A stretch of DNA of 64,000 bases from Cenococcum geophilum (taxonomy: Eukaryota): assembly GCA_050273025.1 (NCBI GenBank), contig CP158635.1, positions 17,980,001 through 18,044,000 on the forward strand, read 5' to 3'. Shown here in pieces: positions 5,500 through 34,000 of this stretch. Below the pieces are notes generated by a model. It saw only the letters and a program-made list of their open reading frames with translations, was not told where the DNA came from and did no database searches. How positions within the stretch are numbered: position 1 is the first letter of the stretch; the number at the start of each line of letters is the position of its first letter. Position numbers and translations under genes: made by a program.

Positions 5500-6665
5500 T
5501 ATTAATTTATCTAGTATGGGGTTTTATAAACCCCATTCGCGTAGTCTATATTAAACTTTTACTTACTCTAGAATTTATATTAGATATCTTACTAAAAATT
5601 ATTTTAATTAGAAGAGTAACGTCCCTCCCTACGGGTTAAGAAACCCCCCACGCCGAGAAATATAAGGGGTACTTTAACTTTAAGCAACTTAAAATTTATA
5701 CACACGTTAATATTTACTATAGCCCTATATAGGTTATATGCTATAGGTACTCCTAGATATCTAGGACCCTTTCTATCTAAAAATTACGTTATATATCGTC
5801 GCCTTCGCGCCTAGTTCGTAGAGAACCTCCTTTTATAGTAATACAGAGTCCCTTCCCTACAGCACTACCGTTAAGCTCTTACTACTCTATAATATTTATT
5901 AACGGTCTTATCTAAACCTTAGAACCTTATTACAATATTAGGAGGTTATTATTAGCCTTATATCTACTATAGCGTACAAATTTATACAATATTGCCACCT
6001 CTATTAGTACTTCCGATTAAAGTAGCTACTAATCCTAGCTAGTGCAAAACAACCCTATACGTCTTATATAATCACCATAGTGTAATTTAGGCTTAGCGTA
6101 GAATATAATACAGTTAGCTAGATATCTAATACCGTATTCCGTAAGTGCGCTAAACCCTTATACCAAGATATACGGTAGACCCCTTTATACGGATAAATCC
6201 GGAGTGCATATTTTTATAGGCTAAGCGTCTTTAAAACTTAGGATTATCTTCTTCTATAATAGAGCTATCATTCTAACGTCCCTCCCTACGGGGCGAGAAA
6301 CCCCCCGCACTAAGATAAATCCATCCTTTATACGTCCTAAGTCCTTCCCTTATAAGTCTTCAAAGCTTTAACCTATATAACGTCCGTCCTACCATAGCGA
6401 GCCACCCACCAAAACGAGTCAACTTCTTAGTATACCTCTTAAAAGTCTCTCCCTTGTATATTAATAAAATTATAATTAATATATCGCTATTTTAAACCCA
6501 TTTCCCTTTTAATATAGCTATACGCAATAAATATTACCCTATAATTGCTTGTACTAACTAAAATTTTCTATGCGTTAAAATTTCTAGCTTTGTATTTTCC
6601 CCCCTGCAAATTTATAAGCATAAAGCTTTACTATTATTTTGGAGCCTAGAAATAAAAGCCATTTT

Positions 6666-9600
6666 TGTAACGGAACCTTATAGCAAGAACTACAATAGGC
6701 TCGTTAATGGGCTAGGTGTATAGGTGATGCAAATTAAAGTTAACAACGAATAATAACTAGTGGAGTAGTTGCCTAACAGATTAACTCTAATTGTATTCTG
6801 AGAATTACTATAAGGAAGGAACTATCTAAGTAGGGACTGTGGTCCTTTAAATATATAACCGTACTTCTAAGAAATCCTTCTTATATATAATGTACGTCTT
6901 ATATATAAGGTACGTAAGTTCCTTTTATTCCTCTTATTTAATATATAGCATGTTATATAACCTTAGTTACTATTCCTCGTTATATAGTTCTACCGGCTCT
7001 ATTCTAGACCGTGCCTAGATTAACTAACTAGCTTCTTCTAACTTCTCTCCTAGTAGTTATAATATTATACTTAAAGCGTCCATAACACTATCTCTTTCCT
7101 CTTTATCTTTATCTTTAAAGATTCTAAATATCTCTAAGTTATTTACTAGAGGTATAATATCTATCTAATTAATTTGGTTAATATTATTGCTTATTATACT
7201 TAAAGCAATTTCTTCTTTATACGCCCAACGTCGTACTCGCACTATTGCTGTAATATTATCTCTTAGTAAGATTATACCGTCTCCGTATTCTTATTATTTA
7301 AAAGAGGGGTTAGTTTATATTGCGTTGGCGAACCTATCTTTACGATAACCATTTTCTTGCTTAGAGTGCACTAAAGCGAATATTTATTCGTCCTGCAATG
7401 TTTACTTTACCTCTAATGCTAAATATACGCGACCTATTACTCTTAATAGTCGTCTAGTTCCCTAATTAATTTATCTTAAGGTCTTATATTTAATCTGCTG
7501 CTACGCGGCTAGATAGTAAACTGTCTTAAGCCCTTACTAAGTTAAAATGTTCTTAGGATGTAGAATAGAAGGCCCTAGATACTTATATCGCGGCATTTAC
7601 TTATTTACTTTATCTTAAGAAGGTTTATAAGAAGGTTTATTCTAAGAAGTAAAAGCTTATAGAATAGGGTCTATAGGAACTTAGTAATAAAAAAACGGAC
7701 TTTTTTTTAATAGAGAAGGAAATAGATCTAAGTAGTTTGGTAACTGCTCTTCCTAGGTCCCCCTTAGGTAACTTATTCTTTAGTAATCCTTTTTTTTAAT
7801 ACTGCCTGACCTAATCTCTTCTAATACTCCTATACCTTTCTTATAGCGTTCTTTAAATTTTCTAATAGCTCCTAGGTAGTCTTAGTGTAGCCTATTTACT
7901 TAACCTTGTACTATATTTTATTATTAATGTCCTTATAACTAATAATCTTTAAAACTTACTATTCGTCTTCTTCCTACCCTTTATATATATCTACTTTATA
8001 AACTAGTGGCTTAATATTCCTATATACTAGCTCTAGCATTATAATATGCTATATAGGGTAGATCTTTATCTTAGCTAGTAGGTTTAACTTAAATATAACT
8101 GGTGAAATCCTCTATATAATTTTAAAAGGTCTTAGTCTAACGTAGTCTAACTTCTTACTTAGTCATCAACTCTTAAAAATTTTGTGTAGTAGCTATACTT
8201 TATCTCCCTCCTTAAGATCTAGTCCCTTAGATCTCTTAGTATTATAATACTTTTTTATTCTCTTTTGTACCTTCTTTACTAATTCTATAAGGTCTATATA
8301 AAGATTTATTAACGTCTTTATTCTTTCTTTAGCTATACTACTCGTTTTCTTTACTTATCGTAATAACAATAATATCCTTAGCTTATATCCATGATTTGCC
8401 TTAAATAGTGGTATGCCTATTCCTTCTTAAGGTGTTATATTATATGCAAACTATATAACTAGTAGTAATAATACCTAATTATTCTGTGCGTGATTAATAT
8501 AATATCTTAGATACTATTTTAGTGTTTAATTTAATCTTTCTATTTAACTGTCTGTCTGCGGATAATATACGGTAGAAGTTACTACTCTAACTCCTTACTC
8601 CGCTAAGAATACCTCCTAAAATGCTACTATAAATCTTAGATCTCTATCTAATATAATTTTACTTAGTGCTCTATATCTTGCGAATACTTCTTTAATATAA
8701 ATTCTAGCAATATCTTCCGCTAAGATTTCTTCTGTATACGCTATAAAGTATCCCTACTTTGTAAGCTTATCTATTATTACTAAGATCGCGTTATAATTTT
8801 GCCCGGTAATAGGGTTTTTTAACTTTAGTAACTTAATAATAAAGTCCTATAATATGACCTCTTATAGTCTCTCTGGTGTTTTAATAGGTTATAGCCCTCT
8901 ATACGGCTTATGCCTTATTAGTTTATTCCTTTAGTAATCTAGATATTCCTTTATAACTTTTCGCGTTAAGCCTTAAATTCCGTTAATAATATACTTCTCT
9001 TAGAGTCTTAATACTAGGCCTATAGCTCCGTTATATCCTTAAGTTAATCTTTTATAAAATTCTTTTATAAATTGCTCCGCTATGCTTTTTAGGATATACT
9101 TTACTTTACGATTTTTGTATATATCTATTTATAAATCTTCTAGTTATGCTTTTAAAATTCTTTATACCTAAAAGCTTTTTAGTATCTTATAGACTCTATC
9201 TTATTCCTCTTAAGTTATTATAATTTTTAGATAATTATACCTAATTAATCCGTCTATATCTTTTCGCAGTAAAGCCCCTAATGGCTTTTTATTGTTTTAT
9301 AGTTTAGCCTTATAACTTAGAGCATCTATTCGCGTGTTATCTATACCCTTAGTATACTAAATCTTAAAATAGTATTTTATAAGCATCTCTGCCCATCTAA
9401 CTTATCTCTAGTTAAGTTCTTTTATTATTAGGAACCCCATTAGGTTCTTATAATCTATCTTAACTATAAATAGTTTTTCCACGCCTTGCAAGAATGCTCT
9501 CTATTTCTTTAGTGCTGTAACTATACCTAATAACTCCTTATTGTAGATGTTATAGTTTAACTCTAGTAGTATTATCTTTTAACTATAGTATACCACTAGG

Positions 9601-12600
9601 TGCTATCTATCTTAATACCTTTATATAAAGTATGCCCCTAGTATATAGTCTAATGCATCCGTTTCTATAACCGTCTCTAGTCTTAATTAATAGATTTTAA
9701 GAACTAGCTCCTGGGTAAACAACTCCTTAACTTTCTTAAAGAGTTCTCTCTGTTCCTTTCCCCATGCCTATAGTTTTTCTTTCTTTGTTAATCGCGTAAA
9801 TGGTTTAATATCCTTTAACTATTGCGCTATAAACCTTCTGCAGTAATTACAAACCCCTAAAAACATTCTTAACTATATAATATTCTCTAGTTCTTACCAA
9901 TTCACTATAGCTTTAATCTTCTTTAGATCTATACTAGGTTAGCTTAATTTAATAATAAATTTAATAAAATTAGTCTTCCTTATAAAGAACTCGTATTTCT
10001 TAATTGCTACTAGTATTTATTCTTTCTATAGTCTCTTTAAGACCCATTTAACATATTCCCCGTGTTCTTCCTTAGTTATTAAGTAGATAATAATGTCGTT
10101 AAGGTATACTATAATAAATTCATCTAAGTGCTCTCCTAACACATTATTAATACGCTTTTAGAATGTTGCTAGTGCGTTTATAAGCCTAAACTGCATAACT
10201 AATAGCTTATATAGTCCTTTCTTTAACCTAAAGGCTGCCTTCTATTTATTGCCTTCCTTAATTCTAATCTAATAGTACGCCTATCTTAGATCTATCTTTA
10301 TAAAGATTTACGCATTGCCTATCCTATCTTAGATTTCGCTAATTAAGGGTAAAGGATACCTATCCTTCCTAGTAATGCTGTTTAACTATCTATAGTTAAT
10401 ATACAGCCTTAGTTTACCATTTTTCTTTAATATAAATAGTACTGGGTAACCCGCTAATAACTGCAATAGTCTAATATATCCCTTTTATAGGTTTTCCTAG
10501 ATAAACTCTTTTAGTACTCTACCCTCTTCTTTAGTAAGCTTATAGATTGGAAAGAACCTTAAACTTATTCCTAGTTCTAATTCTATCTTATAGTCCTATA
10601 CTATATAATCTACTAGCTTTTTACTTTCCGGTAACTATAGTTTCTAACCATACTTATAGTATCTCTTTAGTACGTAACTTAAGCCTTTCTTTATTTCTTT
10701 ATAGGTCGCTTCTACTTAGTACTATACCAACTTAGCTTATTGTTATATCTTGCGGCGTTAAGTATCCCTAATATTAACCTAACCTATAATCCAATTAATC
10801 TTTAGATTGTATTCCCATAACTAAGGCATTTTTAATACTGCCTTATCCCGTCCTAATAGTAGGATATTAAAAGATATCTTAATCCGTCTTCCCTTAATGG
10901 TTAACTAAATAGGTCCTATTTTAAGATTAATAATCCCTCCTTTATAGGCTATTAGATCTCCTAAAATTATAACTAATAGGTAAGGTTACTTCTTCTATCT
11001 ATAAGGTAGTCCTATTCTTTTAACTGCTGCTAGTAAGATATAGTTTTGCGTTACTCCACTATCTATTAGCGCTTTAAACTACTAATCTTACTATTTAATT
11101 TATAAATTTAAGTGTCGTCCTTAAATTCCTTTAAGGGTCTAAGGCTCTACTACTGGCTCCCTTTAGTTCCGTGGGCCTCTACTTTTCCTAACTATTAGCT
11201 ACTTAATCCTATTACGCTTGGCTTACTCTTTAGCTAATACCTAGTTTGTTTTTTGTCTTTAATATACTATAGATATATATTCTCTAGATATTCCCACCAC
11301 TATTGTCTATCTAAGCATTTTTCTATAAGGAATCTTCCTGGTTAAAGTATTAAATTTCCTTCCTCTTAAACTTCTGCTAGATGCCATCTATGCATATATT
11401 TAGCATTCCTATACTATTACTCGTTTATTATCCAGTATATCCTTATAGGGTATTTCTAATTCTTTTCCTTTGGATTCTTATACATCTCGCATATATTATC
11501 CACGTATGCAATCTATAATAGCGTATAGTATGCTGGGTGCTTTAGGTTAACTCTTAACTCGTCTTTATCTTTAAGTTTAAACCTTTATTATGCTAATCTA
11601 AATGTTATAACCTTATTCGCAGGTACTAAAATACGCCTTTCGCTTCTTTAGTCCTCTAATCATTCTTCTAGATCCTTTAATATTATAATTAAGGCTCCTT
11701 TAATATACGTTATAGCCTTTTCTATAATTAGGTGGTCCTGGATAACTCTTTTATCTAACTATATATAGAAATCTTCCTACTTATCGTTATGCCTTTGTCT
11801 ATACCACTTTTGGTACAGCTACTAGAGTATATACGGCTTGTCCGTAAGGAAGTATCTTCTTATTACTATATTATAACAGCCCTTTATATATTATTCTTTA
11901 AACCTAGTAAGGATCCCTAGATCCTCTTTATCTTCTAGTTCGGTAAGCCACTTAGCTCTTAGTATGCCTACCCTAGGCCTATTAGTAATTCTTATACTAG
12001 TGCCCTATCCCTTATACGTCCCAATATACTAGATCTTTTATCTAGTTTCTATTCTCGCTATGCGATAATTCTCTGTCTAAATTCTTTTATAGTTTCTTTT
12101 AGTTTGCGTCTTACGCTTAGATCCTTAAAGTCTTCTTACTTCTTAATCTTAGTATTAATATTTTAATCTTTAGGCCGAATACTGTGTTCTCCTAGTAGGT
12201 CTTCTAGGTCTATATATCTGTCTCCTAGTCTAGTTACTATTTATACCGCAGATTCCTTAATCTATAAAGAAGCCTCTTGCCTCTTATTTATGGGTGTCCT
12301 TATTTATACTCTAAATTCTTAACCCCTTTAGATTCTCGATCCCAAGCTTGCTTTTATCTTAAGCCTTACTCCAGCCTTAGTCTAACTAGGCTTACTTAGT
12401 GTTCTTATCTTATCTTAAGAGTCTTAAATTTTACTTATCTTGTCTTAAGAGTCTTATGTTTTTAGGAAACTTCGTCCTAAGCTTATTTATATATTACTAA
12501 ACTAAGCCATTACTCTACTCTATCGGTTATCGTCCGTTATAGGTCCTTAAGCTTACCTTATCTCATCTTAAGAATCTTGGTCGTCTTTTATCTCATCCTA

Positions 12601-14420
12601 AGAATCTTAAGCCTTTGGCTTTTTGCCTTTATTAAGTGCTAAAGTAGTTCGCTGCCCTACTTCTCTTACGTCTCGCGAAGCGATAGACATTATATCTAGT
12701 AGGGTTTTAATCCCTACTAATGTTCCCTATTCTATAGTAGAATTATCCTCTACTTTTGGTGTAATATCTCTTAGGTCCGCATACTCCTAGTAAGCTGCCT
12801 TTATTACCTCGTCGTTACGAAATACTTCGCCTATATTAAAATCGTCGTCCTTAATATCCGATCTGCGAGCTAGTTCATTAGTTCCTCTATATCCTATAGG
12901 TGCTAGCTCTTATAGCTAGTAGCTTTTGCCATACTTAGCATCCTTATAAATTCGGTATGCGTTATTATAACAGAACGCAAAACTTTTAATTAAACATTCT
13001 TTCGTTCCTCGCAGTATATTATCGTCCCTCTATATATATATATCGTCTACTAGTCTTATACCTTTTACTATATAGTAACTCTGCCTACTTCTATAGTCTT
13101 TAATATAATAACCCTATTTTCCGCAATTTATATAAGCTCCCTCTTTAAACCATTTTTCTTGCTATAGAGTCCGCCTGAATATCTTCTACTGCTAAGATCC
13201 CTAATTCGGCCTCTGCTCCTTAGACCTTTAATTACTTAATCTTTATCCTTTAGGTTTCCACAGTTTTTTACTCTATCTCTTATAGGCTTTTTTAATACCA
13301 CTAAGGTCTATTAACTTTGCGCTATACTATAGTTTCTAACTTAGCTTTAGTTGTTATATACTCTACGCCTTATATAACTATAGAACTCTACCCTAACCTC
13401 TCTTAGCCTACTCCCTTTAGTAAATCTAATTATTAATCTTAATCGCTTAATCTATTAATTCTCTTAGGGTATCCGCATCTTTTATTAGAATAATCGCGTC
13501 CTAGACTTTAGCCTTAAGTCCTTATTTATACTATGCTATAAGCGCCCTATTATTCTACTCTACTTATATCGCTAACGTCTAGAACTACGTTGTATACTTA
13601 ATTGCTAAGGTTTATTATATAATGTCTTAGAGTTTCCTTTCTGCTATAGTTGTTACCTTCGGGTCTCCAAATATCTAGGTAAATTATTCTATAAATCCAT
13701 TCTAGCTTAAGAATATAAACCGTACCTTTTAGTTAGTGGTTATTATACTATTTGCTTATATCTCTATAAGATAAGGCTTAAACTATTTAAGTGCCCTTCC
13801 TATTAAGAACAGTCCTGTATACGCTATTAATCCATAAATATTGCTAGCTTTGCTCCCTCCTATATAACCTTAAAGTGCATTTATATAAGGAATCCTTTAA
13901 GCTTTAATCTCCCTCCTAAGTACCCCTTAATTAATAGTAACTTAACCTTTACTGCGCCTATCCCGTTAATCCTATTTTCCAATATTATATTATTTTCTAT
14001 TAACTAATTAACTATCTCTTATAGTTATCCAACCGTTATAGGTTACTATGAGTTAGTGTCTACTATACTAGTGTCGTTACCTAACCTTAAAGTAGTTACC
14101 ACCGTTAATAGCGTTATAGTGGCTGCTTTTAGTAGCATATTATTCGACTCTCTATATTAGATACTATAACTAGGTAGTAATTATATAATAGAACCTTATA
14201 GTAAGAACTACGGTAGGCTTGTTATTAGGCTAGGTATATAGGTAAAGTAAATATAGAAGTTAACAACGTAATAATAACTAGTGGAGTGGTTGCCTAATAG
14301 ATTAACTCTAATTATATTCTAAGAATTACTACAAGGAAGGAACTATCTAGGTAGGGATTAAGGGTCCTTAAATACACAACCGTACTCCTATAAAATCCTT
14401 CTTATACGTAATATACGTGT
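6666..14420 (-). mobile_element. RIP-degraded chromoviral Ty3/gypsy LTR retrotransposon (copy 1)
   Basis: 422-bp 3' LTR at 6666-7087 (TGTAAC...ATAACA) with an adjacent polypurine tract (7088-7105 on the minus strand). The 5' LTR starts at 14184 and is truncated near 14420. RT VYLNDIIIY (~10110-10085), integrase YPQTDS*IERLN (~8565-8530), chromodomain ~8000-7850, gag ~14140-13100. Confidence 0.92.
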
Positions 14421-14670
14421 GCTCTATCTACTCTGTTACGGATTATACAGATCCTATAGATTATTGACCTGAGGTACGAGTGGTCTATATTTTCGGGTCC
14501 TGGATTTCAAACCCTTGCCAAGCCGGCTTTTAATTGGTCCAAAAAAAAACTGCGGGCGGTATCTACCTGTAGAATACACGTGACGAACATCAAAATATTT
14601 AAGATCTCACTATTAATAAATCAACCTTTTTATTGACATCTCTATTAATACTACTATATGCGTCTTAACT

Positions 14671-17600
14671 ATGGTAGAACCTGCTCTAATTAAGTGTAGT
14701 AAGTGCTGTTTAATACAACCCCGTATTAATTTTATTAAAAACGGCCCATCTACTAAGCTTTTAAAGTAATGTTAATTGTGTTGGTTAAAGGCGCGTTTTC
14801 CCTGTATATTTTTTCTACTTTTACTTACTTTCCTAGGGCTCTAAATATGATTTAAATAGGCGGAAAGCAGAGCTTGGTTCTATTAAGACTCGTCCTATAA
14901 AGCGCTAGTAAAATGCTTTACCTAAAACCGATACTGAGGACGTCTTCTTACCTCGCGGCTAGAACAGTTAAGATACCCCTGAAATAGCTTAATGGCGGAA
15001 GACAATTAGGGTAATATAACGGGAGCACTGCATTCTTAATCGGCGGGGTAAAGCTTACTCGCCTACTCCTCCGCTATATACTACAGATAAAGCTCCATAC
15101 AGTAGAAGAAGCACCCTAGATGGCCTAAATACGTCCTTGCCGGAACTAGCTCCTATGCCTGCTTTACCGCTAATACCTACCCTACCACTAATACCACCTT
15201 TCTCGCGGTAAGCTCTGACTACGGCTACATTACTACCCGTTTCGGCTGTTAATTGGGAGCGAATTAAGAAGTTTAGGAGTATACTATAGGCTAAATGTAT
15301 GAAGACGTGTAGTTGTTGTAAGGAGCGGTGGTTCTAAATGGGCCTAGCTACGGAGGGTAACAATATAGGTATATGCAAAGCCTGTATTAAGGACGCCGAT
15401 AGCCTTAAATATCCAACCCTTCCTCCCCTGTTTGGTGAAAGTAACGGGCTCGATCCGGGGCCTGTTTCTGGCTTCCTACCTATACTTACCGCGGTGGAGG
15501 AGCTTCTGATTGCGCGCGTATACGTTTATCTGCAAGTCGTGCGTGTACGCGGCCAGTAACATCGCTATACTGGCTATGTCTGCTGCTTTGGCTAGAACAC
15601 ACTAAAGACTTAGAGGCAGCTACTACGGCTACCTACTGAACTCGATATACTGGTTGTGAGGCCTGCGGCAGTAGAGGGTAGCGAATACCTAGGTTAGCGG
15701 TTTACTAAGCGGTATACTATAAGGCGCTCTGCTATAGCATAGTGGCTTTACTTTCTAAAGGCCAATTATCCTAATTATCGCGACGTTAAAATATGTAGCA
15801 CTCGGCTTACCAGCTTACCCGAAAATGGCTCTATATTAGATTAGCTACCTTATATTAACGAGTTAGAGTCTAATTCTAGTGGCCTAACGGCTTACCCTAC
15901 TACTCCTATGCAACGTCCTTCTGCTATTAATCCTCTGCCTACCGAGCTTAGCAGTAATATACTAGACGGTGAATTTAATGACGATGTACTGGATACTTTG
16001 GTTCCTGATTTAGTACCTAACCTTAATGAATTGGAGCTTTTAGGTCGCGAGGTTTAATACTAATAAGACCTACGAGCGGGCCTAGAGGTTCCCACTGTGC
16101 AATAGATACCTCTCTCTGAGCGATTAGCTAGCTTTATTATGCGCGGCGCCTTTCTTACTCTGTTTCCTTATAGTAAAGCTAATTTTAACATGCTACGAAG
16201 CCGTACAGTTACCCTGGCTGCGTACGCCAAGCATATGCTTAAGTATTAGGACGGTTGGTTTGGCCGCCACCCCTTATTTCGCTACTATGTGTTTAATCGG
16301 ATTATAAGAGAGTAAGCCCTTAACGCCACCCGCTTCCTTTGCGGCCGATTAAATAAGAATGGTCTATCTTTAGATAAGCTTAGTAATCTTATAAATAGTA
16401 ATAGGGGTAGCTAGTTGCTGAATAAGATTGTACGGCATATACGGAACCTTAAGGGCACTAGACCTTACTGGAGGTAGAAGAGAAATGAGCTTATAGCTTA
16501 TGCTAAGAATATTAAGAGCGGGTCTCTATTCTTTACACTTAGCGCTACTAATCTATATTGGTATGATCTACACTCTTATATACCTCTATTTAACGAATAT
16601 AAGGCTGCTAATAAGGCTTAGCGCTACCGGATTGCTTTTTAAAATCTTAACGATAATCCGCATATTACTGCTTACTGGCTGCATCGCTGCTTTAATCTGT
16701 TTAGGAAGCACGTACTTATAGGCCTATTTAATAGTACTGACTTTTGGTCTTAATATGAGTGGTAGGTATAAGGTAGCGGCTATATATATGGCTTTTTATA
16801 GAGTTTAACAGCCCTAAGGCCAGATTTATTAGCTAGTGACTTAAGGGCGGCTTTTGCTGAGTACTGGGCTACTTTTATATCCGTAATTAATCCTAATTAA
16901 TCTAGGCCTCCCGATCTCCAATATCCTTTTGCTCTTAGCTATGAAGAACAGCTTAATACTAGTGAGCTTTTTACTGCCTGCCTTAATTAATTTTAACGGT
17001 ACCGTAATTGCACCGAATCTTACTGCTTAAGATTGAAGAAAGGCTCCACTGGAGTAAAGGAGTGCCGCTTCTATTTTCCACGCTTTCTCCGTAATAAGGC
17101 CGCTGTATTAAAGGATTAAAATCCATATTACTGGACGTTCTGTCCATAGCGTAATAATAAGCTTCTTAATAGTTATAATGCAGCTATAATATTAGCGTGG
17201 ATGGCGAATATTAATACGTTACCTGCTATGAGTATATTAGTAATAGTTAACTATATAGGCAAATATTATAGCAAGGAAGAGAAGAAGTTAACTTCCTACT
17301 AGGAGTTACTCTAATTAGTACAGCCGCACGCCAATAGCCTTTATGCCTTTAGTTCGGTTGTGGCCAGGTTTATAAATAAGCTTATTGCTAAATGTAATTG
17401 GTTAGCGTAGGAGGTATGCTATTTACTTCTTAATATTCCCCTTTGCGAAGGCTCTAGGAATATAGTAACTTTAAACTGCCACTAGGAGGACGATTAAAGC
17501 GCTATGTATAAGCTTAATAATGGGCAACTAAGAGGGTGCGGACTGTCTAACTATAAGAAATATAAGCGCCGCCTAGATGGGGTAGAGGACGTTACTTTCC

Positions 17601-19608
17601 TTAATTTTCTACTCTATTTTAATTACTCTACTTATAAGCGTCGGCTAAGAGTAAGGCCTTAAGTTATATCGTACTTTCCGCGATATAACGGCGATTGTTC
17701 CTATCTATAGTATCCTAAGTTCTGCCGTGTAAAGCTTATTCTTTATCACCCGTAGAAGGAGTATAAGGAAGTAGCTACTTATACTAATGGATTTGGGGCC
17801 CCTAATTATATGGCTTCCTATTAGGCTTGTGTTAACTCTTATTAGCACCCGCCTAACTACTTCTATAATTAGAAACTAGAGGAAGGCCGCGAAACTACTA
17901 ATGATATTAATAAGTTTAATGGCGGTTTTATAGATGACTTAGAGCTATACTAGTCCTTTAAGGCCCTGCATGCCCGCGTTTAAAATACTAACGGAGTTAA
18001 AATTAAGGATCCTAATAGGCTTGGTGATAGGGAGCTTAATTATAACTACAACTAGAGTACACATTAGGGTACATACCCGCAGCTTAATAAGAGGACTTAT
18101 TGGTAGGAAGCATGGCTATAGTCTCTACTATAGAGCCGCCTATTTTAAACAGCAACTCCGTCCTCCTTATAACTAGGTCAGCGTTATATTTATAATATTA
18201 TAGTTAATTACTATAGGCAGATCTAAGCGGGCCTTAGCCCCCCCCTACTGCGGATTAATGTTAATGGAGAGGCAGGAACCGGTAAATTATATCTTATTGC
18301 TGTCCTCTCTACTACGCTCTGTAATATAGTAAGGGCTAATAGCAAGCTAATGCTATTGGCTCAAGCGGCCCCTACTAGGGTAGCTGCCTTTAATATTAAC
18401 GGCAGAACTATATACGATCTATTAAGGTTGCCAGTAAATCGCCCGTTTAAGGAATTGCCTACTACTAGTCTTACGCCTCTATAGCAAGCTTTTAAGAATA
18501 TTTACTATCTCGTCCTTAACAAGAAATCTATGATCGGGCAAGTATATCTAGCTTAGATTAATCGCCGCCTCTATTAGATCTACCTTATATATAACAACGA
18601 CTACTTTAAAGGCTTAAATATTTTCCTAGTAGGCGATTTCTATTAGCTTCCCCCTATAGGTTAGGCGGCCTTATACAGCAATCTACCCGCTAGGCCGTTA
18701 GAGTTCGCCAGCTATAGAAAGGGAGCCTATAAGGCGATTGACCGAATAGCTGTCCTAGATTAAGTTATGCGGCAGGGCGGTAATAACGCTAAGAGCTCTA
18801 TATTTAGGACAGCCCTTATAGAGCTATATAGTGATTCTGTAAGTGATTTAACCTAGAAGCTTCTTTTAACTAGGTGTAAGCAGGGCCTATCCACCAATGA
18901 GGTTGCGAGCTTCGATAACGTAATTCGGCTATATAGCACGCGCGCTGCTATAGGTAAGTATAACACTATTCGGCTTCGCGACCTTTTACAGCTAGTGGTG
19001 GTTATTAAGTTAGTTAACACTGGTGTAGGTGCGCGGAAAGTTACTCCTAATTAGTGCGATACTATAGAGAATCTAGCCCTATGTATTGGCGCGAAAGTAA
19101 TGCTAATATAGAATATCTGGGTTGAACTAGGCTTAGTAAACGGTACTACTAGTATAGTTAAAGATATTGTATGGAAGGGACACGCGGATATTAAAAAGGA
19201 TTAGCCTTAATTACTACTAATTGCGGTAGATGGGTACAACGGACCTGCCCTATTTACTTAGTAGGATGGTAAGAAAGTCGTTCTTATATTTTCTATGCTT
19301 TATAAGTGGGAGGGTATAAGAGGCTCTTGCTTATAGCATTAATTTCTAATTACTCTGGCTTTTACTCTTACCGTATATAAAAGCTAGGGCCTAATACTTA
19401 ACCGGGTGGTTCTAGATGTTAAGGAAAAGGATAAGACAGCCGGGCTAACCTATGTAGCAATCTCACGAGTTAAGAAGCTTTTAGGGCTTATGTTCGAATG
19501 TGGGTTTAATATAGAACGATTTTAGTTATCTACAAGTAAGACTAAAGAGGCACGATAAGAAGATTTTATATAGAGGCAGTAGCAACTACTTGTAAACGAC
19601 TTTTCCTA
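14671..19608 (+). pseudogene. Helitron Rep/PIF1-helicase gene, RIP-inactivated
   Basis: LTAVEELLIARVYVYLQVVRVRGQ (DUF6570-like), HUH relic EW*V*GSGYIYG (~16757), YIGKYYSK (~17252), Walker A GEAGTGK (~18266), AAPTRVAAFNINGRTI, LVGDFY*LPP and TVYKS*GLIL. Element termini not resolved. Confidence 0.93.
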
Positions 19609-23187: not shown

Positions 23188-25405
23188 TATTAGTTGATGT
23201 GGTGATATAGACAGTATTGGACGAGGAGACGGGCGAGAGAGAAGATAGAAAGGACGGAGGAGCCTTTGGTAGGTGTTAGTCGAGTAACGTTAATGGCTAT
23301 ATTATGGCTGCCTAATCTCCTATACTTATAGGCCTCCTCCCGTCTATAAATACTCCCTCCTTTATACCTTCCTTTCTTCTTTTCTTCTTCCTTATAAGAG
23401 CTAGAGGTGCTCTAATACTCCTTAGTCCCCACTAAGGGATTTATTAGTTAACGTGGTGATATAGATAGTATTGGACGAGGAGACGGGCGAGAGAGAAGAT
23501 AGGAAGGACGGAGGAACCTTTAGTAGGTGTTAGTCGAGTAATATTAATAGCTAGTTTTCGTCACCCAAAAATTGCGTTATGTGATGATATTTGGGAACGC
23601 AAATATATACCCTGTCCTATACTTATACTACTACTAAATATTTTAGATTTTGTATTTGGAGCTGCTTGCAATAGGCATTCCTAAGAGATCTGCCGGTTTA
23701 AAGCTCTACAATTAAATGTTGTTGACGTTTTATATAGGGGTCGTTGATTAAGCTCCTAGGATATGATTTTTAAAGTTTAACACCACACTAATATTATGAC
23801 CTTCTTGTAGTGGCTGAGCCACCCCTAATCTCCTCCCCTCCCTTTTCTCCCTCCCATTACTTGGCGCCAAGCTATTGTGTCGTTGCTAAGCCATCATGTT
23901 GTTGTACGTCCGAACTGGGTGGGTAATGACGTAGTTAATAGTTATTAGGTATTAAAAATATTTAGTATATAAAGCTTTAAATTGGAATTACAATCTACTA
24001 TATTATATCCTACGTAGAGGGCTCTGCATTAAAGCTCTGCAGTCTAAATATGTGCTATATTCGTGACTAATATATTCTTTAGGCCCGGCTCAAGTAGGGC
24101 GCCTCGGTTACTGTAGTAGATCCTTACCTAGTAGTAACTAAGGCGCCTTAATCTTACTACTACTTCTAAATTAAGCAAAAGCTCTATATAGGGGGGTCCT
24201 AGGGGGTCTCCCCCTGGAAAACCTTATCTCTATATATATTAATTAAAGTTTATATAATAAAGCTCTAAATTAAAGCTTTGGGTTAATTAATTGGCTTATT
24301 ATACTTGGGTTAAAATTTGCGTTGGGGGACTAACGTTCCGCATGTTATAGATTACCTCACGTGACTTCGGTTACCATTTCTCGTCACATGGTTCTATCGG
24401 CTCCATCCTAGTCCGTGCCTAAATCAACCAACTAGCTTCTTCCGACTCTTCCCCAAGTAGTCGTAACATCGTACTTAAAGCGTCCGTAACAGCAACGTGA
24501 TAGTTGTCACGGTACTGATCTGCACAGTACTAACAGCTGTACGATACTGTTTCCTACAGTATCGTACCCGGCCTACGGCCACGCCATTAACCGTTATCGA
24601 CGGCTACCAGTCATGGCAGAACTGCAAATAATAGGTCACGTGCTGACGCAGAGGCCTCGCGCTAAACGCACTGGCCTCTCCCCTTATTTCTTAACCGCGC
24701 GCTACGCGATACCTCTCTTCTTTACGCAACGTCTTAATATATCACTTGATACCGTATATAGCAACAATTGAATACTTCTATAGAAGTTCTTTAACCCTCG
24801 CTAGTAGCATCCGTGATAACAGTAAGATTTGTTGGTGTCGCAGGCCAGGTATTATCTTCACGAGCCTGAGGAAACAACTGTATTAAGTTAGTAATCTAAC
24901 TGTACACCTGCGGGCCGAAGTGTCCCAGATCTTAAATAAGAACAACGAAAAACAACGCTGCTGCTTGCCAAAAATTCATCTGACTTTTTGTCATTTCAGC
25001 ACGCCCAGTGCGACACTAAGCTTACACCCAAATAGGTTAGCCAATCTTGGCATATTATATCAGCAAAATCTTGCTCGGCTTAACGTCGGCTCAACTCTAC
25101 TCAGCTTTACACTGCCACTGCTTATGCGTCTGTCCACATCAGCAGCACCTGGGCAGGTGCTCAAACTTCAACCTGAAGGTACCTACCTAAGAACGCTCAA
25201 CCTTCCAAGGTCACCAGCACTGCCGGTCAGCATGCGGTGTCATATAATTTTGTACAATGCACCCTGAAATATCCTAGTTGCTGCATTCCTCATGGAAGCA
25301 CATCCCGCCCGCCACTCAAATGACTGCAAATTCAACACTGCTGACCTCCTTTCTCCATAGCCATTCCGAACACCAAACCCCGAAATAGTCTCTTCCAGTC
25401 TCAAC

Positions 25406-26583
25406 ATGGCCGCTCTCGCCGGTGCTCTCGGTTCTGTTATCGGTTACCTGGGCGCTGAAGTCGCCGAAACTCTCATCTTCGAGCGTCTCTTCTTCCCCGC
25501 CCGCTTTTACAATGATCTCACACCGCTTGTCCTGATCAAGCTCGTCCTGCTCTTCCCCATGGGCGGCCCGCTCCACCGTGCCGCGCTCTCGGTGCTCGAC
25601 ACTTTCCGCTCCCACGATCTCTATGCCGGTCGCCAGCGCGGCACCATGCTCGGCACCGCCTTCTTTGCTGACAGTGGCCTCAAGTACTGCGAATCGTCGC
25701 AAGGCCGGGCCGGGCCGAAAAAGGATACCCGCAATGCTATGTGGATGCGGGTTATGCAAGCAGTTCGGCGGCGAGGTGACGGCGCGGCGCGGAGAGCAAT
25801 GCAACCAGTGTACCAGCTGGGTCTGCGAGCCGGGTCTGTGCCGCGGCGTGTACGTGCAGTGCGCGAGGACTGCTTGACATGGCGGACAGTCGTGGGGATC
25901 TTTTGTAGTGAGCTTACGGCAGTGGCAGTGGCGCTGATCGCCGGACTCTACATCCACGTTCCATGGCTCGCTGGCTTCGTCATGGTACCGTTGGTGCTGA
26001 AGTTGCTAGCTGCGATCGTGGCAGTGAAACGTGAACACCTGAGACCAATATCAGAGAAAGATATCCCCACTCAGGAAAAGATTTTTGAGATCGATGACCT
26101 GGTTAGGGGATTCTTCATTATTAAAGGCTCCGAGGAGGCGGTATGTATTTGTTTGAATCCTTGCCTAAACATTATGGCTAATAGCACCCACAGGTTCTTC
26201 AATTCTTCCGTCACTACGCTCATCCGCTGCGGGATACCAGGTGGCGTGAGATCATTTCAATCGGAATTGCATACCTATTTGTCCTCTACTTTCCCGCGGG
26301 ATTACTAGCCTTGCTGTGGATGGATCAAGAGGCACAATACCTGTGGCTGAGCTACCAAATATACATTATAATCGCGATGCACTTGATAAGAGTGTGTGGA
26401 TTCAACGGGTGCGGTAGCACAGAAGAACGACTGGCTAGGTATTTAGAAATTGGCGAAGAGGTGTGGTTGAGTGATTCAACTGGGAATGGGGTTGCTGCCA
26501 CACTGGTGGTAGAGGAGGTAGAGAGTGTCAAGGTGGCAAGGGAGAAAGTAGATAGTATCTTCGCTACTTTGGAGGAGTGTTGA
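25406..26583 (+). CDS. Fungal hypothetical multi-pass membrane protein, 374 aa (exons 25406-26140, 26194-26583)
   Basis: A 53-bp intron GTATGT...GCTAAT...CAG (26141-26193) joins ORF 25406 in frame to VLQFFRHYAHP...LLWMDQ of ORF 26311. Several hydrophobic segments, GC-rich coding, no RIP stops. Confidence 0.88.
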
Positions 26584-26998
26584 GCTCTGCCTCGTCTGTA
26601 TCCAAGTTGTCCCTCTACCTCGTCTTGAACGATGAATACTCAGGACTTCCGGGGTAAAATGACATTCCAATCTAGATACTATCTCGAATCAGCTACAACT
26701 AACCCTATACCGACACTAACAAGTATCTAACAGTCCTGATCACAGTTGATGGCGATTAGGAATAAAAGTTATCACAATGAGATATGGAGCCACCTATTGC
26801 CAAGGCCCTACGTCGTAGCCCTGTCAGCCACTATTGGCATCCAAATGAGCTGAAGCCACCCCTGAATTTGAATCACAGATCTCGCTGTTCGGCTTCTCAC
26901 GCTTCGTTCTCGGCTTCAATTTTGGATATACCTAAACAACAACTTGAAGACAACCGAATAATCATAGGATCGACCATCTGTTGGTCCCTACGTGCAAC

Positions 26999-29659
26999 AT
27001 GTCTCGGTCCTTAGGAAAGTGCATAGAATCGATTTTTGACCCACTGCCTCCCCTCCGTGGCTATGGGTATCTCGTTATGGTCTGGAAACTCTATCGACTG
27101 CTCGCGATTGGTGGCCGCGACTCGAAGCATCCACAGAAGGTTACCTTTCTACGACGACTTACCGACGTCGAGAAGCGAGTGCTCTACCTGCTCGAAGAAT
27201 GGTGGGACGGATGGATCAAAGAGGATATATTGACGAGATTTACAAAGGGCATGCTGTTAGCGTACGCTGTATTTGAACTACGCTACTACTACGAAAACGA
27301 AGAAGAAACCGCCGGATTCGAAGAGTTCTTGCTCGGGACGGATGACAAATCCCTTTATGAGACGGTTAAGAAACAAGTGCTCGAGACCCATGAGGGCGAG
27401 TACTTCACCTACGTTGCGATCCGGTCGCACCGTGAACGACAGAAGGGAGGCAGAGTGTATGACGACCCGATTTTGACGGACATCACCGCCTACAACCGAG
27501 AGCTCTTCCACCTGGCCAAAGTCGAGCTCCTGCTTGAAATATGTCCAGAGGATATGAGGACTGAGGAGCGCAGGTCGGCCGGCATCATGGCTGCTTGCCA
27601 GCGAGTCGCCAACGAGTGCGTCGCCAACGGCATGAAATTGATAGGCCAAGCAGATGAGCCAGAAGGGATCATCGTCCATATGGCTGGACGGGACTTGCGG
27701 GTCGCCATCAACAGCTCGCAGCTAAGGGAACCGTGGCCACGAGAGAAGAAGGCCATTGGACACTGCTACTACAATCCTGGAGCCGTTGTTGATGGCTGTC
27801 CATGGTTGACTACCAGTTTGGAAAAGCTGGAAGACGACTCGGACACATCCAGTGATGACAAAAACTTTGATTTGAGGGAAATCCTATGGAATTTGCAGCA
27901 ACTCGATCTGATGGGACCGCCCTACTACCTATGGAGCATCAAGGAGAAGAGGACTGTCAAGGTATCCGACCTAGGGATCTCACCAATGTATGCCATTATC
28001 AGCCACACCTGGGGCCGCTGGCGGATACCGGGTGAGAACATAGAGATTCCTGGAGTGCCCTGGGCCGTACCGGCGAACACTCGGTTCGACGTCGCGACCC
28101 TTCCCGCTATGATAGAGAATGCGGCGTTTCCAGAGGACTACGTTTGGATCGATCTGTTCTGCATCCCACAAGATCGTGATGATCCTGAACAGCAGCGGAT
28201 CTGCCGGATGGAGCTCATTCGTCAAGCCAACATCTTCCGGAATGCTGCGACGGCCGTAGCATGGCTTTTTGACGTCGAGGATTGGGGACCCACAGCGGCG
28301 GCGCTCGCCTACCTGGCCGTCGAGTTTCACAATAACTCCACCAACGAGGAGCACACAGAATCGATGCCGCTCTACAACCTGATTCTACAGGCTGCCGGTG
28401 AGCATGCGAACCGCCGCTGTGGCCTGCTAGAGGGCGACATATACGCGAAGAGCGGCGACGACGTCGAGTTCATCAGCTGGTTCTCATCGCTGTGGACTCT
28501 GCAGGAGGTATTGATGCGGCCGGACATGCTTCTGTTAAACCGCAACTTGGAGCCGCTCGTGGTGTGGCATGTTACCATGACTCTCGATACCATTGCCTGC
28601 CTAGTTATGTGCCGGAGTACTACATTCCACAACCCTAAGGATTCCAGATCCAAAGCTGAGAAACTGGAGGCGATACGCCAGGTCAGCATGAAGTTACCTT
28701 CAGGCCCGCGTGAGATCTACGTCCTCTTCAGCGTGACGGGGATGGTGCAGATTGCGCGGCCGTCTCGACTTTCTGCTCTGACTCTGGGCGGCAAGAGAGT
28801 TTGCAAACACTCACGCTCTCAGGCCATCATGTCTGTCACTGGCGCAACTCTGTGGTTTAGGCACAACGACTTCCAGCAATTCTCCGACCCCGAGTCACCG
28901 GATAACATGATTTTTGGTCTCTACGAGCCTGGATTTATCAATGAGCTCTTCCACCTTGTAGGAGGCTCCTTCTTCCTGTGCCGGAACGAAGGACCAACGG
29001 TGACAGCACCGCCGGAGACTGTTCACAAGGGCGAAACTCAAATCAGGATAACGCATTCAGTTTCCGGATCCATGCTGCCCTTCAGCCCCGGCTCGGCTAC
29101 ACGATTTGTGAGTTTCCCAGAAAAGCATCGCGAGCTCGTGGACCATCCGTCTGTTGCGGGTTGGAGGATCGGAATGGGCCGAGATCCCTGGACGGGCAAC
29201 AAGGGCGGCGACGTCCGTCTCCCGACTGTCGTTGTCTTGGCTGCCAACTGCGAGTGGGAATCTGAGCCGCCCGTTGTCCCGCAGGGCGAGGGCCAGCTGG
29301 AGTCGTCACCTCAGGCCGTTGGCGCGGTTCCTGAAGGCGCGAAGACCATTAAATGCCAGATTGCCCCCCGCGCCCGCCCCTTGAAGGGAACGGTACAAGG
29401 CAATATGCCGGGGCCCGAGTATGACGAGGGCAGCGTTATTGAGGTCGACGACGTGGGTATTGATGAGTGGGTGTCCAAATTCGAGTTGGACACGTTCGCT
29501 GTCTGCGTTATGAACAGCCGCACAGAGGTCAGAGGAGTGCTCCTACAGCGGCCGGGCTTTGGACATGGTCCCCTTATAAAGATTGGCGTTTTTGAGATAG
29601 AAGACGAGGAGGGCATTGAGTTACCCGACGCGTGTCGTGTAGACTGGACTGTGATGTGA
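26999..29659 (+). CDS. HET (heterokaryon incompatibility) domain protein, 886 aa
   Basis: Uninterrupted ORF with HET signature motifs YAIISHTWG, YVWIDLFCIPQ, IFRNA..AVAWL and WFSSLWTLQE (~27990-28510). First in-frame ATG at 26999. Confidence 0.93.
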   Translation: MSRSLGKCIESIFDPLPPLRGYGYLVMVWKLYRLLAIGGRDSKHPQKVTFLRRLTDVEKRVLYLLEEWWDGWIKEDILTRFTKGMLLAYAVFELRYYYENEEETAGFEEFLLGTDDKSLYETVKKQVLETHEGEYFTYVAIRSHRERQKGGRVYDDPILTDITAYNRELFHLAKVELLLEICPEDMRTEERRSAGIMAACQRVANECVANGMKLIGQADEPEGIIVHMAGRDLRVAINSSQLREPWPREKKAIGHCYYNPGAVVDGCPWLTTSLEKLEDDSDTSSDDKNFDLREILWNLQQLDLMGPPYYLWSIKEKRTVKVSDLGISPMYAIISHTWGRWRIPGENIEIPGVPWAVPANTRFDVATLPAMIENAAFPEDYVWIDLFCIPQDRDDPEQQRICRMELIRQANIFRNAATAVAWLFDVEDWGPTAAALAYLAVEFHNNSTNEEHTESMPLYNLILQAAGEHANRRCGLLEGDIYAKSGDDVEFISWFSSLWTLQEVLMRPDMLLLNRNLEPLVVWHVTMTLDTIACLVMCRSTTFHNPKDSRSKAEKLEAIRQVSMKLPSGPREIYVLFSVTGMVQIARPSRLSALTLGGKRVCKHSRSQAIMSVTGATLWFRHNDFQQFSDPESPDNMIFGLYEPGFINELFHLVGGSFFLCRNEGPTVTAPPETVHKGETQIRITHSVSGSMLPFSPGSATRFVSFPEKHRELVDHPSVAGWRIGMGRDPWTGNKGGDVRLPTVVVLAANCEWESEPPVVPQGEGQLESSPQAVGAVPEGAKTIKCQIAPRARPLKGTVQGNMPGPEYDEGSVIEVDDVGIDEWVSKFELDTFAVCVMNSRTEVRGVLLQRPGFGHGPLIKIGVFEIEDEEGIELPDACRVDWTVM

Positions 29660-29810
29660 TCGTTCTCTATGTTTTGCAGCTTGGTCTATGTAAGATTTGG
29701 TATTCATCACAGTTTGGACGGCTTCTTGCAACAGCCTATGGCCCGGTAGTTGAACGGCCGAGGTTGCGTACCTGTTGGGAAGTGATGGGTGATAGGTGTT
29801 TCATATGGCC

Positions 29811-30382
29811 CTAGATGAAATTTTCACCTGTTCCACTTCTGAAGAATAACTTTGCTTGACCGATGATGTCTATTGGGAACATGTTAACCCAAGGCTATTT
29901 TCAAAAAGAAGTGGAGCATTATTACCTCTAATTGCCTCTTCAGCCCACGGGAGTGGCCTTCTTGTATCTCCCATCCAATAGTCTATTAGGGCATCTTGAC
30001 GAAGCAGTTCCTGATCTTCCACCATGGCTCTAATAATGTCAAACATATCTTTGACTCCTTGTTTGAGATCCTCTCGCTGGGCGTTGCAGGATTTGTCGAA
30101 GAACCAGCGACGGTCTGGTACTATACTCGTTGGAGAAGCGTCAATTGATTGAAGGCAGTCTTTGGACAAATCGTCTGGATTGTCGCAACCTTTCTTGTCT
30201 TGGAGCCTTTCCCAGCCGATGTCATGAGGAGGTTCCATAAAACCCATGATGTCCATTCTAGCTGGAGGGAGATTGGGTGTGTCTAATGAATCAAGATTCT
30301 GGCACTCATCCCGTTTGTGCAGCACAGAAGCACTAGTGGCTGCTAAGAAACAAGTGAATAGAAAGATAACGAGACCTCGCAT
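29811..30382 (-). CDS. Small secreted protein (~171 aa), possibly a truncated metalloprotease-like/effector gene
   Basis: Signal peptide MRGLVIFLFTCFLAATSA, Kex2-like LHKR site and 4 Cys in the mature part. A probable 56-bp intron 29925-29870 (GTAATA...TTAAC...TAG) gives a last exon DIIGQAKLFFRSGTGENFI*. Confidence 0.65.
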
Positions 30383-30808
30383 CTTGATAATCCTTTGAGT
30401 ATGCTCTGAAAAAGATTGATGATGAGTAGGTGTGTCAACCTGACCATGAATATCTTTCCTGACTTATGTACATTATTACATTCGCCGTATACCCAAATCA
30501 AGAAGCCATGTCAAGGTGTTAGATATCGCTTGAATGCATGAAACCCACTAAATAAAGATCTGAAGGAGGACACATGCCGGTTGATGTGCGCATGTTGTTA
30601 CCATAGCCTTGTGTCAAGACGCGGCAAAGATATGTTGGTTGAGTTGTATTATCTTTGGTTGGTGCTCATGCCGTCTTGAACCGCGCTAGCGCGTTGTTGG
30701 TCAACTTAGAAGGCGTTTGGAAGGTGTCCATATGATCTTGGCACCTCCGCCTTGCTCCCGCCCATTGCTCGTGCTAATCTCCGTCGCATTGAGCTACTAT
30801 CATGATAT

Positions 30809-31070
30809 TTAAAGACGCAACACAGAGCAATAGTCTTCCAGCCCCATCGCACCGATTTCTTGTTTTGCTGCTTCCATCTCATCCTTTCTCGGTCTATTTG
30901 AGGTTGGCTTCGTGGATGCAGGTTCCTTACGTTTACGACCTCGTTTCGTCCCTTCATCCGCCTTGGCCTTCTTCTCGTCGCGCTTCTTCTGTGCCTCAAC
31001 GATATCCTCATAGCTCATCACTTTCGCTTTGCCTATAACGGTCGATCTCGTAGATGTTCGCGTCCTGCTG
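30809..31070 (-). pseudogene. C-terminal fragment of a pogo/Fot1-type transposase
   Basis: STRSTVIGKAKVMSYEDIVEAQKKRDEK...EIGAMGLEDYCSVL resembles C-termini of fungal pogo transposases. No DDE domain upstream. Confidence 0.7.
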
Positions 31071-34000
31071 TTAGATCTGTGGCTGTGCAAAATCTTGGCA
31101 ATTGGGCCACAGCGATGATTATGTGAGGTGGGGTTGTTCGCCACTAGCCCGGATTGGTGATCGCTTCGATTGAAAGGTACCGATCGACCTGGCCACGTTG
31201 CATAAATCATCCTTACATGGCAGCTAAAGGGCTGATAATAACTCATCAGCGTGCTAGTGAGGCTCCAAGGCTTGGATACTACCATATTATGACTATTAGG
31301 AAGGATGAGAGCTCGGTGATAAAGCTGTGATGGAGGTGTCCCCTGACGCCACTAAAAGGAGGCTCTCCGTAAACCACGCGACGCGGCGACGCCAGCGTAA
31401 TTTTTAGTTGGGCGCTGTCCCTGGGGATTAGGGGTGGCCAAACTACAGGACTCCCACAGAATTAAAAAAAAATGAAGATGTGGATGGGACGCTGAAATTA
31501 CTCTAATACAAAGTACCTACGATTTGGCTCGCTACACAGGGTGGCTCGCGACATGGGGATAGATGTTAGTATTTTTCTTGAGGCATTTACACCTTAGGGA
31601 CCGGTTTGTAGCAAGAAAAATACAACGGTCTTGGTCATGCTGTTGATCGTTCCGTCCCCGGCATCCAAAACCGCGTCAGTTTTGGACCCCTGCTCCACGA
31701 CCGCCATCAACATATTCTTCAATTTCGGAATATTAGAAGGATAGTTCTATAAAGAAAGAAGATTACTCTGAATTTTAAAGACATTTAGCCCTTGCAAATA
31801 TGCACTCCGGATTTGTCCGCGCGTAGGGGCCAGTGAAGTGTCTTGGCATGAGATTTAGCGTGCTTACGTGGTGCGGTAATACACATCTCGCTAATGTCCT
31901 AGCCACCCAGCCGAGCCAGCCATGCAGCCGGGCTTACCAGATGACGTACGTAAATTACGCTACATTGATTATTACGCTACATTGATTACGTGGGCAGTGC
32001 GGGGTTGTTTTAAGCTAGCCGGAGTTGGGGCTCGCGTCGATTAGAGTACCGACCAGGGTGGCGACGTTGCATGAATTTGCGCGCCACAGCAGACACAAGG
32101 CTGATATAACTTCCTGGCATTGTAGTAAGATTCTGAGGCTCAGACAACACCGTTTATAAGTATTATAGAGTAGAAAAGGCTCTATAGTAGTGCTATAGGG
32201 AAAAAACTCTCTTGCGTTATAAAATGAGGCTCTTTATAAACTAGGCGCGAAGGCGAGGATATATTACGTAAATTTTAGATAGAAGGGGTTCTATACGTCT
32301 AGAAATAGCTACGGCATATAACCTATGCGTAGTTACAGTGAACATCGATATGTGAACAGATTTCAAGTTGCTTGAAGTTGAAGTACCCCTCATATTTCTC
32401 GGCGCGGAGGGTTTCTCGCCCCGCAAGGAGGGACGTTAATGCTCCGAAATTTGAAGATGTGTTAATGGCTGTAGTGGATCAGGGGTGCAAAGCTGTCGCG
32501 GTTCTAGATGCCGTAAACGGAATAATCGACGGCATGACCAAGACCGTCGTATTTTTCTCGCTGCAGACTCGTTCCCAAAGGAGAAATGTCTAAAGAAAAA
32601 TAATACATAGGCTATAACTTAATAGACTCACAAGGAAAAGAATTAAGATGCCTAAACAATGGATTTATCTCGGCGCGGGGGGTTTCTCGACCTGTAGGGA
32701 GGGACGTTATTTTATAAACTTTCTTTACTCTAAAACCTTTTTCCAGTTAACATATACGCAATTTCTCGTACGCTGTATACCATTGTCTTATCTGTTTAGT
32801 GTTGTCTTATTTAACATTTTGACATAGCTAGATCCTGTAAGAGATATTTAAATAGCAATAGCAAATATAAGGTATCTTGCGGTATTTAGCTTTAAGCACT
32901 CTTACTAATAGTGTACTTTAAGCGTGGATTTTTCGGCAAGCTATGCTGGTATCTCTCAACATCTGCAACATATATGCTCAGCTTTTCAGAAGAAACGGTT
33001 ATCTCTCAAGTCTCAGTATATATATTTTCTGCCAATGCTTTCGTTACTACCTATACCGGGTCATTAGACAAACTGCCGTCCTTATTACGGATTTTACCCG
33101 GCCGTTGTCTACTAAAGCTTCGTTTGGCCGAATATATAGCGATCTATATTATGGCCAGATTAAATAGCACAGAAAAAGTAGGTTAAATACTTTATTCTGC
33201 AAGCAAGAGTTTAATAGATATTTCTATAGTAGATGCGTTAAGAACTATATAAAAATTAGCTTAATAAGCTAGTTCTTTAGGTAATATAATAACGCTAACG
33301 GACTGCTAAAGCGCTGCCGATATTACCTCCGCCCGCTAGCGATACATTTTATATTACTAAGCGGCCGATTAACTACGGAGGCCCGGTACTACGCTAGCGC
33401 CCGTTTATTCTAAAACTTAGTAATTGGGACCTTAAGGACAATATAGCTAGAGCGTCTTTATAAAAGCAGGTTCCCGAAGTCGACCGCTTATTTGCCTTTG
33501 TTTAGGCCTTTTTTTTACGCCGGGCTATTCTTTAATAAATGTCCTCTGGATATAGTCTTTCTAAAATTAGATAATACCGTTCCTATTTATCATTAGCGAG
33601 GACAAGAGTATTCTAAGTTAATAATGATTCCTTACTAGGATCCTATCTAAAGGACGCCATTTCTTATCAGGAGAGCTATCGTATATAGTGTATTTGCTAT
33701 TAAACTCTACTATTATATAAATGTTCGCACTATTAGAACTAAGGTGGTACACTTTATTAAGAATAGTGTTCTTTTCTCTTCGCACCATTTTAACCAAGTT
33801 TTTCCGTGCTAACTAAGGAGTTATTATTAAGTGGCAAGGTTAGGGACTATAATAATAATATAAATAAGATAAGGTGATGTACGTGGAATAAAGTGCCGCC
33901 ATTTAGCTCTTTTTTCTTTATTACTGATAAGATTATATTAAATTTAAGGGGAACCTTTTTTAGTTAAGGGGATCTCTTTTGGCCGAGATTGGCCTCTTTT

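Follow-up and report, generated by a model that had tools for sequence, protein, structure and literature searches.

Self/non-self recognition in fungi is governed by HET-domain genes, whose distribution is notoriously patchy, and the known fungal vehicles of large gene cargo are the Starships. Here, we report an element, designated Y, that spans positions 6380–31566 of a 64,000-nucleotide stretch of the Cenococcum geophilum genome (assembly GCA_050273025.1, contig CP158635.1, positions 17,980,001 to 18,044,000 of the forward strand), which is referred to in the following as the window. Y is one discrete insertion with inverted ends of the pogo/Fot1 type and a TA on each side, and three intact genes, one of which encodes a HET domain, lie between its terminal inverted repeats (TIRs) and outside every element that is nested within it. 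The window consists of fungal-type DNA in which AT-rich blocks resembling the product of repeat-induced point mutation (RIP), a fungal defence, alternate with GC-balanced blocks.

Elements of several kinds are known to carry genes in fungi. Starships reach lengths of tens to hundreds of kb and encode a DUF3435 tyrosine recombinase, the 'captain', at their 5′ end (PMC11162782). Gene-carrying TIR elements of fungi are also already known. ToxhAT of wheat pathogens, 14.3 kb in length, contains ToxA along with other genes, and its bounding 74-bp TIRs share about 92% identity (PMC6737239). In Pyrenophora tritici-repentis, hAT and Tc1/Mariner elements with extra open reading frames between their TIRs have multiplied, the Tc1/Mariner case being one of transduplication (PMC3538342). 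A literature search for a pogo/Fot1 element with several complete genes turned up none, which is not proof of absence.

Results

The left end of Y, read from 6380, opens with ACGTCCGTCC, and the right end, read as the reverse complement from 31566, opens with ACATCTATCC; GCGAGCCACCC and a second CGAG motif are common to both termini. Without gaps the termini agree at 28 of 46 positions, 11 of the 18 mismatches being transitions; when 200,000 pairs were drawn at random in the window, only 5 reached this identity. TA borders Y directly on either side, at 6378–79 and 31567–68. The sequences beyond these borders belong to X2, the element into which Y is inserted, and they pair with X1, a relative of X2, such that 6274–6379 corresponds to 32709–32604 and 31567–31735 to 32605–32437. 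The two pairings overlap by exactly one TA in X1 (32604–05), where X1 presents a paralogous empty site. The initial annotation had described diverged inverted termini 25 kb apart, a TA next to each of them, and a host element X2 that the excision of Y rebuilds in the form in which X1 reads, and all of this was borne out.

It is scarcely credible that the two termini resemble each other in inverted orientation merely by chance, or that the assembly is wrong. An identity of just 28/46 would permit such a view, as would the scope of the contig check, which took in the right junction, the left junction at 6380 being outside the stretch examined. However, the join at the empty site is exact with its 2-bp TA overlap, the homology to the X elements continues for hundreds of bp behind the termini and scores far above shuffled sequences, and in three DNA runs contigs span the right junction without any difference. 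Of the contiguity from 6380 to 31566 that had been presumed earlier, it is the right junction that this check confirms.

X1 is a non-autonomous pogo-type element of about 924 bp (Table 1). X2 belongs to the same family and is inserted in X1 at a TA (6274–75 and 32437–38) in the opposite orientation; the homology between the two is full-length (0–924 vs 0–972). The pattern TAACRTNNNTC(N11)AG was found with 0 mismatches in 8 places only, which are exactly the 8 nested termini, and it occurs in a bracket-like order, first on the plus strand at 5617, 6274, 6378 and 21107 and then on the minus strand at 23189, 31568, 32438 and 32709. The TIR architecture of Y is common to X1, X2 and a DDE_1-encoding pogo of 2.1 kb located inside Y, and the pogo-type elements are nested in the order X1 > X2 > Y > 2.1-kb pogo. 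In X1, X2 and Y alike, the left half is RIP-mutated. Within 5617–32709, X1, X2 and Y, which are non-autonomous pogo elements related to one another, are inserted one within another at TA sites, an arrangement that points to self-nesting or else to some local preference on the part of the X/Y family.

The relationship of Y to its hosts was assessed by alignments with transition-tolerant scoring, with 20 shuffles as control. The 5′ block of Y (31068–31566, reverse complement) aligned to positions 1–513 of X1 with a score of 276, while shuffles scored 34.9 ± 3.6, and the 3′ block (6380–6608) aligned to positions 686–924 with a score of 72.5, while shuffles scored 33.2 ± 3.5. Homology to X amounts to about 500 bp at the 5′ end of Y and about 230 bp at the 3′ end. 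In the 5′ block, 79 transversions were counted between Y and X in about 499 aligned bases, compared to 30 in 487 between X1 and X2; in the 3′ block the corresponding numbers were 69–71 in about 231 and 19 in 269. By these counts Y has diverged further from X than X1 has from X2. Y is a member of the wider family of its hosts X1 and X2.

Y has also retained the end of a transposase gene. All 12 of the 12 matches to the remnant frame carry PF03184, and the tail of the frame (30812–31096) aligns to residues 476–570 of a 570-aa protein with the same C-terminus (E 3e-26). The start of the frame matches the N-terminal region of this protein weakly (E 0.37), which is a mere hint. A tblastn search found the rest of this transposase type nowhere else in the window, and a Pfam scan found no DDE_1 domain in Y's own frame. 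The catalytic core has been deleted and only the last ~95 DDE_1 residues are kept; Y is therefore non-autonomous, as proposed from the outset together with the C-terminal pogo transposase scrap near the right end. The TA duplication, the family-type TIRs and the transposase remnant are all features of DDE_1 pogo/Fot1 elements. A separate candidate, a short Y hidden behind the transposase stop codon with a second 3′ end of its own, was tried and rejected, as its alignment scores of 43.5, 30.5 and 24.0 did not clear the shuffled sequences with their maxima of 41–43.

Table 1. Features of the X1/X2/Y locus, in window coordinates
Feature	Position	Strand	Remarks
X1, left part	5619..6273	+	TA at 5617-18; TIR starts ACGTCCC
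X1, right part	32439..32707	+	TA at 32708-09; crosses the Y target site with a single TA, 32604-05
X2, short part	6276..6379	-	contains TA copy 6378-79
X2, long part	31567..32436	-	starts with second TA copy, 31567-68
Y 3′ block	6380..6610	-	TIR 6380-6425 and subterminal sequence; RIP-mutated
Y 5′ block	31068..31566	-	TIR 31521-31566 and subterminal sequence; not RIP-mutated
Transposase remnant frame, 180 codons	30809..31351	-	C-terminal tail 30812-31096 = last ~95 aa of DDE_1
Candidate cargo segment, 6,317 bp	24492..30808	.	single copy, not RIP-mutated
Gene A, 374 aa	25406..26583	+	exons 25406-26140 and 26194-26583; 53-nt GT..AG intron
HET-domain gene, 886 aa	26999..29659	+	single open frame; PF06985 at 3.7e-09
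Gene C, 170 aa	29870..30382	-	orphan; N-terminus judged a signal peptide by eye
Ty3/gypsy long terminal repeat (LTR) retrotransposon	6605..24491 (about)	-	RVT_1, RNase H and SH3_Tf2-1 domains
High-copy Helitron unit	14465..24345	+	DUF6570, Helitron_like_N, PIF1 and Pif1_2B in one frame, stops being the only breaks
2,079-bp pogo	21109..23187	-	DDE_1 and HTH_Tnp_Tc5; near-perfect TIRs, TA flanks

The gene block of Y lies in a single-copy segment of the element that is not RIP-mutated. Sequencing depth over the candidate cargo segment is flat at 42.9, and one contig of 8,156 bp spans 24464–32600 with 0 differences; the GC content is 0.514 and TpA/ApT is 0.74. No repeats pairing the two ends of the segment were found, nor any X homology within it, including directly after the gypsy at 24492. 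On the other side the gene block adjoins the transposase remnant with no repeat in between. The membrane-like, HET and secreted-protein genes that the initial annotation had placed inside the element are thus located as described, within 24492–30808, between the TIRs and outside the nested elements.

Gene A has hydrophobic stretches that are membrane-like as judged by eye. Its family comprises 219 representatives at E ≤ 0.001; a Pfam family was not found for it and the Protein Atlas gave no usable match. Alignments with its homologues end where exon 1 ends, and exon 2 continues them directly in 8/8 members tested, so that gene A is intact by its intron and its exon-2 alignment, as is the HET gene by its one open frame. 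The exact sequence of the HET protein is on record, and among its relatives are a 574-aa protein that is 79% identical over 64% of the query and several at 55–59%. For gene C, the sole database match was gene C itself, and no Pfam family was found.

When metagenome contigs were searched with the HET alignment, 30 loci were recovered, all at ≤48% identity, and near these loci there was neither a pogo TIR pattern nor a DDE_1 homologue. In 7 of the 30 loci, a homologue of gene A was found at a distance of 1–7 kb from that of HET, and these 7 fall into about 4 distinct groups (L001/L002, L003/L005, L015 and L019/L029). One representative of the gene A family, P0189 (958 aa), has a gene A-like N-terminus fused to a HET domain. 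As far as can be judged from sequence, gene A and the HET gene (25406–29659) look like a conserved two-gene module that is linked in other fungi as well.

Nine runs recorded as RNA ('fungus metagenome' metatranscriptomes) contain 0.67–0.72 of the sampled words of 23554–33000, which suggests transcription of the gene block. One raw RNA run had no reads on 24607–31943. In run X21, raw RNA reads match two short stretches and nothing else, 14463–14528 and 32058–32105, with loose ends on both sides; these may be pieces of sequence whose relatives are transcribed elsewhere.

All repeated DNA within Y forms one hierarchical nest, gypsy > Helitron > pogo, which accounts for 17.9 of its 25.2 kb. The left LTR of the gypsy element covers about 6605–7087, its end being set by the adjoining purine-rich tract. 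The right LTR is in two pieces, 14124–14464 (its first ~300–340 bp) and 24346–24491 (its last 146 bp), and is split by the 9.9-kb Helitron unit. This unit contains 254-bp tandem repeats at 20708–21108 and 23188–23553, within which the 2,079-bp pogo is located. The pogo shows little RIP (indices 1.04/1.06) and differs from the type of Y, with ~29% identity to the transposase type of the Y scrap. The summed depth of the Helitron unit in public contigs is 10,000–52,000, vs 42.9 for single-copy DNA, and one public contig joins the end of the unit at 24343 to its start at 14464 with two extra letters, as if head-to-tail copies of the unit existed elsewhere in the genome.

Since the 17.9 kb are a single gypsy nest, Y measured about 7.3 kb beforehand, a core that corresponds to 6380–6604/6610 together with 24492–31566. 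The element had initially been called giant, which is correct for the 25.2-kb span, but this size is secondary. Its later swelling had been attributed to gypsy, Helitron, Copia and pogo insertions; Copia has to be removed from this list, as no Copia domain was found in Pfam scans of window frames of at least 70 aa and in stop-read-through scans of 6380–20700, 19161–21112 and 23190–25402, while the other three are present.

The proximity of the Helitron, 0.15 kb from the gene block, raises the question of whether the genes could be the cargo of a Helitron capture, a process on record in fungi (10.1101/2025.11.13.688278), or otherwise of a Starship. Both are very improbable. The gypsy LTR contains the end of the Helitron unit, at 24345, whereas the genes are single copy and lie beyond the LTR end at 24491, outside the Helitron boundaries, and a DUF3435 captain was absent from the Pfam scans of Y and of the window frames of at least 70 aa.

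Y is best explained as a transposon of the pogo/Fot1 type (DDE_1) that became non-autonomous by deletion and is related to the ~950-bp X elements hosting it; whether it carried the genes when it integrated is, in our judgement, evenly balanced. Y retains its two TIRs, along with ~500 bp at the 5′ end, ~230 bp at the 3′ end and the final ~95 transposase codons, and the gene block lies between the stop codon of the remnant and the 3′ block. In the history that we propose, a transposase acting in trans would have excised the ~7.3-kb unit at its TIRs and inserted it at a TA of X2. Subsequently, the Ty3/gypsy element would have landed beside the 3′ block, the Helitron unit in its LTR and the pogo in the Helitron, which together would have lengthened Y to 25.2 kb. 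The sequence shows the boundaries of Y, the TA duplication, the paralogous empty site, the relationship to X, the order of nesting and the integrity of the genes; we infer that the genes lay between the TIRs by the time Y integrated, and that it was mobilised in trans. That the genes moved as a unit with Y is plausible but unproven, and we would give it about the same weight as its opposite. More tentatively, and somewhat short of an even chance, a non-autonomous pogo-superfamily element may have taken up the whole block of three genes, promoters and two-gene HET module included, and transposed it as a unit. The site of uptake would have been the short 3′ region behind the transposase remnant. 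Carriage is favoured by the position of the genes between the TIRs and outside all nested elements, by their direct contact with the transposase remnant, by the precedent of gene-bearing TIR elements in other fungi and by the finding that no other carrier ends are visible around the gene block.

A number of observations weigh against carriage of the genes by Y. Further copies of Y were not found at ≥90% likeness, and 24,607–31,943 is at single-copy depth in three DNA runs. The same interval is without polymorphism, there being no differences in the three runs, all of which may be from the assembly's own strain. The empty site observed for Y is the paralogous one in X1 and not an allelic one. 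ACGT ends are typical of Fot1, and the left TIR of Y starts with ACGT, but the right TIR now reads ACAT. According to a review (PMC6431247), cut-and-paste transposition becomes less efficient once the cargo exceeds about 6 kb, and whole genes are rarely captured. The gypsy element has no clean 5-bp target duplication, the left flank being CCCCC or GCAAA vs GCAAC on the right, and some recombination or deletion inside Y is therefore possible. Finally, every model needs a step in which the genes were captured, and this step is not dated with respect to the integration of Y.

The disagreement of the gypsy flanks could also be explained if recombination between dispersed gypsy or other repeats, with which the region is saturated, had placed a native gene block between the halves of a short Y. 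We consider this improbable. The right boundary of the gene block meets the transposase remnant without any repeat, and the outer flanks of Y restore X2 exactly, which a single exchange cannot explain.

The dating of capture bears on a further possibility, that a Y of ~1.1 kb entered X2 first and that the 6.3-kb gene segment came into place later, either by break repair copying an ectopic template or by an unrecognised carrier element, without ever travelling between the TIRs of Y. The single copy of Y is compatible with such a sequence of events, and the gypsy element, without a clean duplication, hides the left boundary of the segment. On the other hand, ectopic copying would leave a donor, and none was found at ≥90% likeness, the right end of Y, the transposase scrap and the genes all being single copy at this level; the segment also shows no RIP and is not bounded by carrier ends. 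Later entry is on these grounds unlikely, though it deserves to be taken seriously, and the integration of Y with its genes already in place is the reading we retain.

Other repeats were found outside the X1/X2/Y locus. Sister copies of the gypsy element, RIP-mutated, lie head to head at 56.1–62.3 kb (minus strand) and 62.2–64.0 kb (plus strand). The element at 43940–50304 is bounded by LTRs, direct repeats of ~277 bp with 96% identity, and has a GC content of about 0.50. Its frames of at least 70 aa gave no Pfam domain, and it could represent a non-autonomous LTR element of recent origin.

Discussion

If Y did carry its genes, small DDE transposons would, besides Starships, relocate allorecognition (HET) genes, possibly between genomes. 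An ordinary cut-and-paste pogo derivative that moves a HET gene together with its conserved partner as a module would provide a simple second route beside that of the Starships. Whole genes carried by TIR elements, of which few cases are known in fungi, would then extend to the pogo branch as well. Whether or not movement is proven, the locus offers an unusually clean dated insertion stack, X1 > X2 > Y > gypsy > Helitron > pogo.

ToxhAT is like Y in being a TIR-defined type II element around several complete genes in RIP-affected, transposon-rich DNA, and in some hosts nested Tc1-mariner or LTR insertions have spread its TIRs to ~20 kb. It differs in that it is named after a neighbouring hAT-like transposase gene, whereas Y has ~46-bp pogo-type TIRs, TA borders and a DDE_1 remnant. 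The mobility of ToxhAT is backed by its presence in three species, while Y is described from one locus.

The transduplicating elements of Pyrenophora share with Y the presence of host coding sequence between class II TIRs in an ascomycete, and one of their families is of the Tc1/Mariner type. These families are amplified (46 members, of which 31 are nearly identical) and have one extra open reading frame beside the transposase; Y, in contrast, is single copy, has no functional transposase and contains three unrelated complete genes. The Pack-MULE and Pack-TYPE elements of plants are, like Y, non-autonomous TIR elements with host DNA that are mobilised in trans, but they mostly contain gene fragments, are usually 1–2 kb long and belong to other superfamilies (PMC6431247). 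Starships resemble Y as low-copy fungal elements with cargo genes and short-repeat bounds. Unlike them, Y has pogo TIRs with TA, and no captain was found in the Pfam scans. To the initial annotation the present analysis adds the X homology of both ends of Y, the extent of the DDE_1 tail, the 17.9-kb gypsy nest and the ~7.3-kb core, whose single-copy gene segment shows no sign of RIP.

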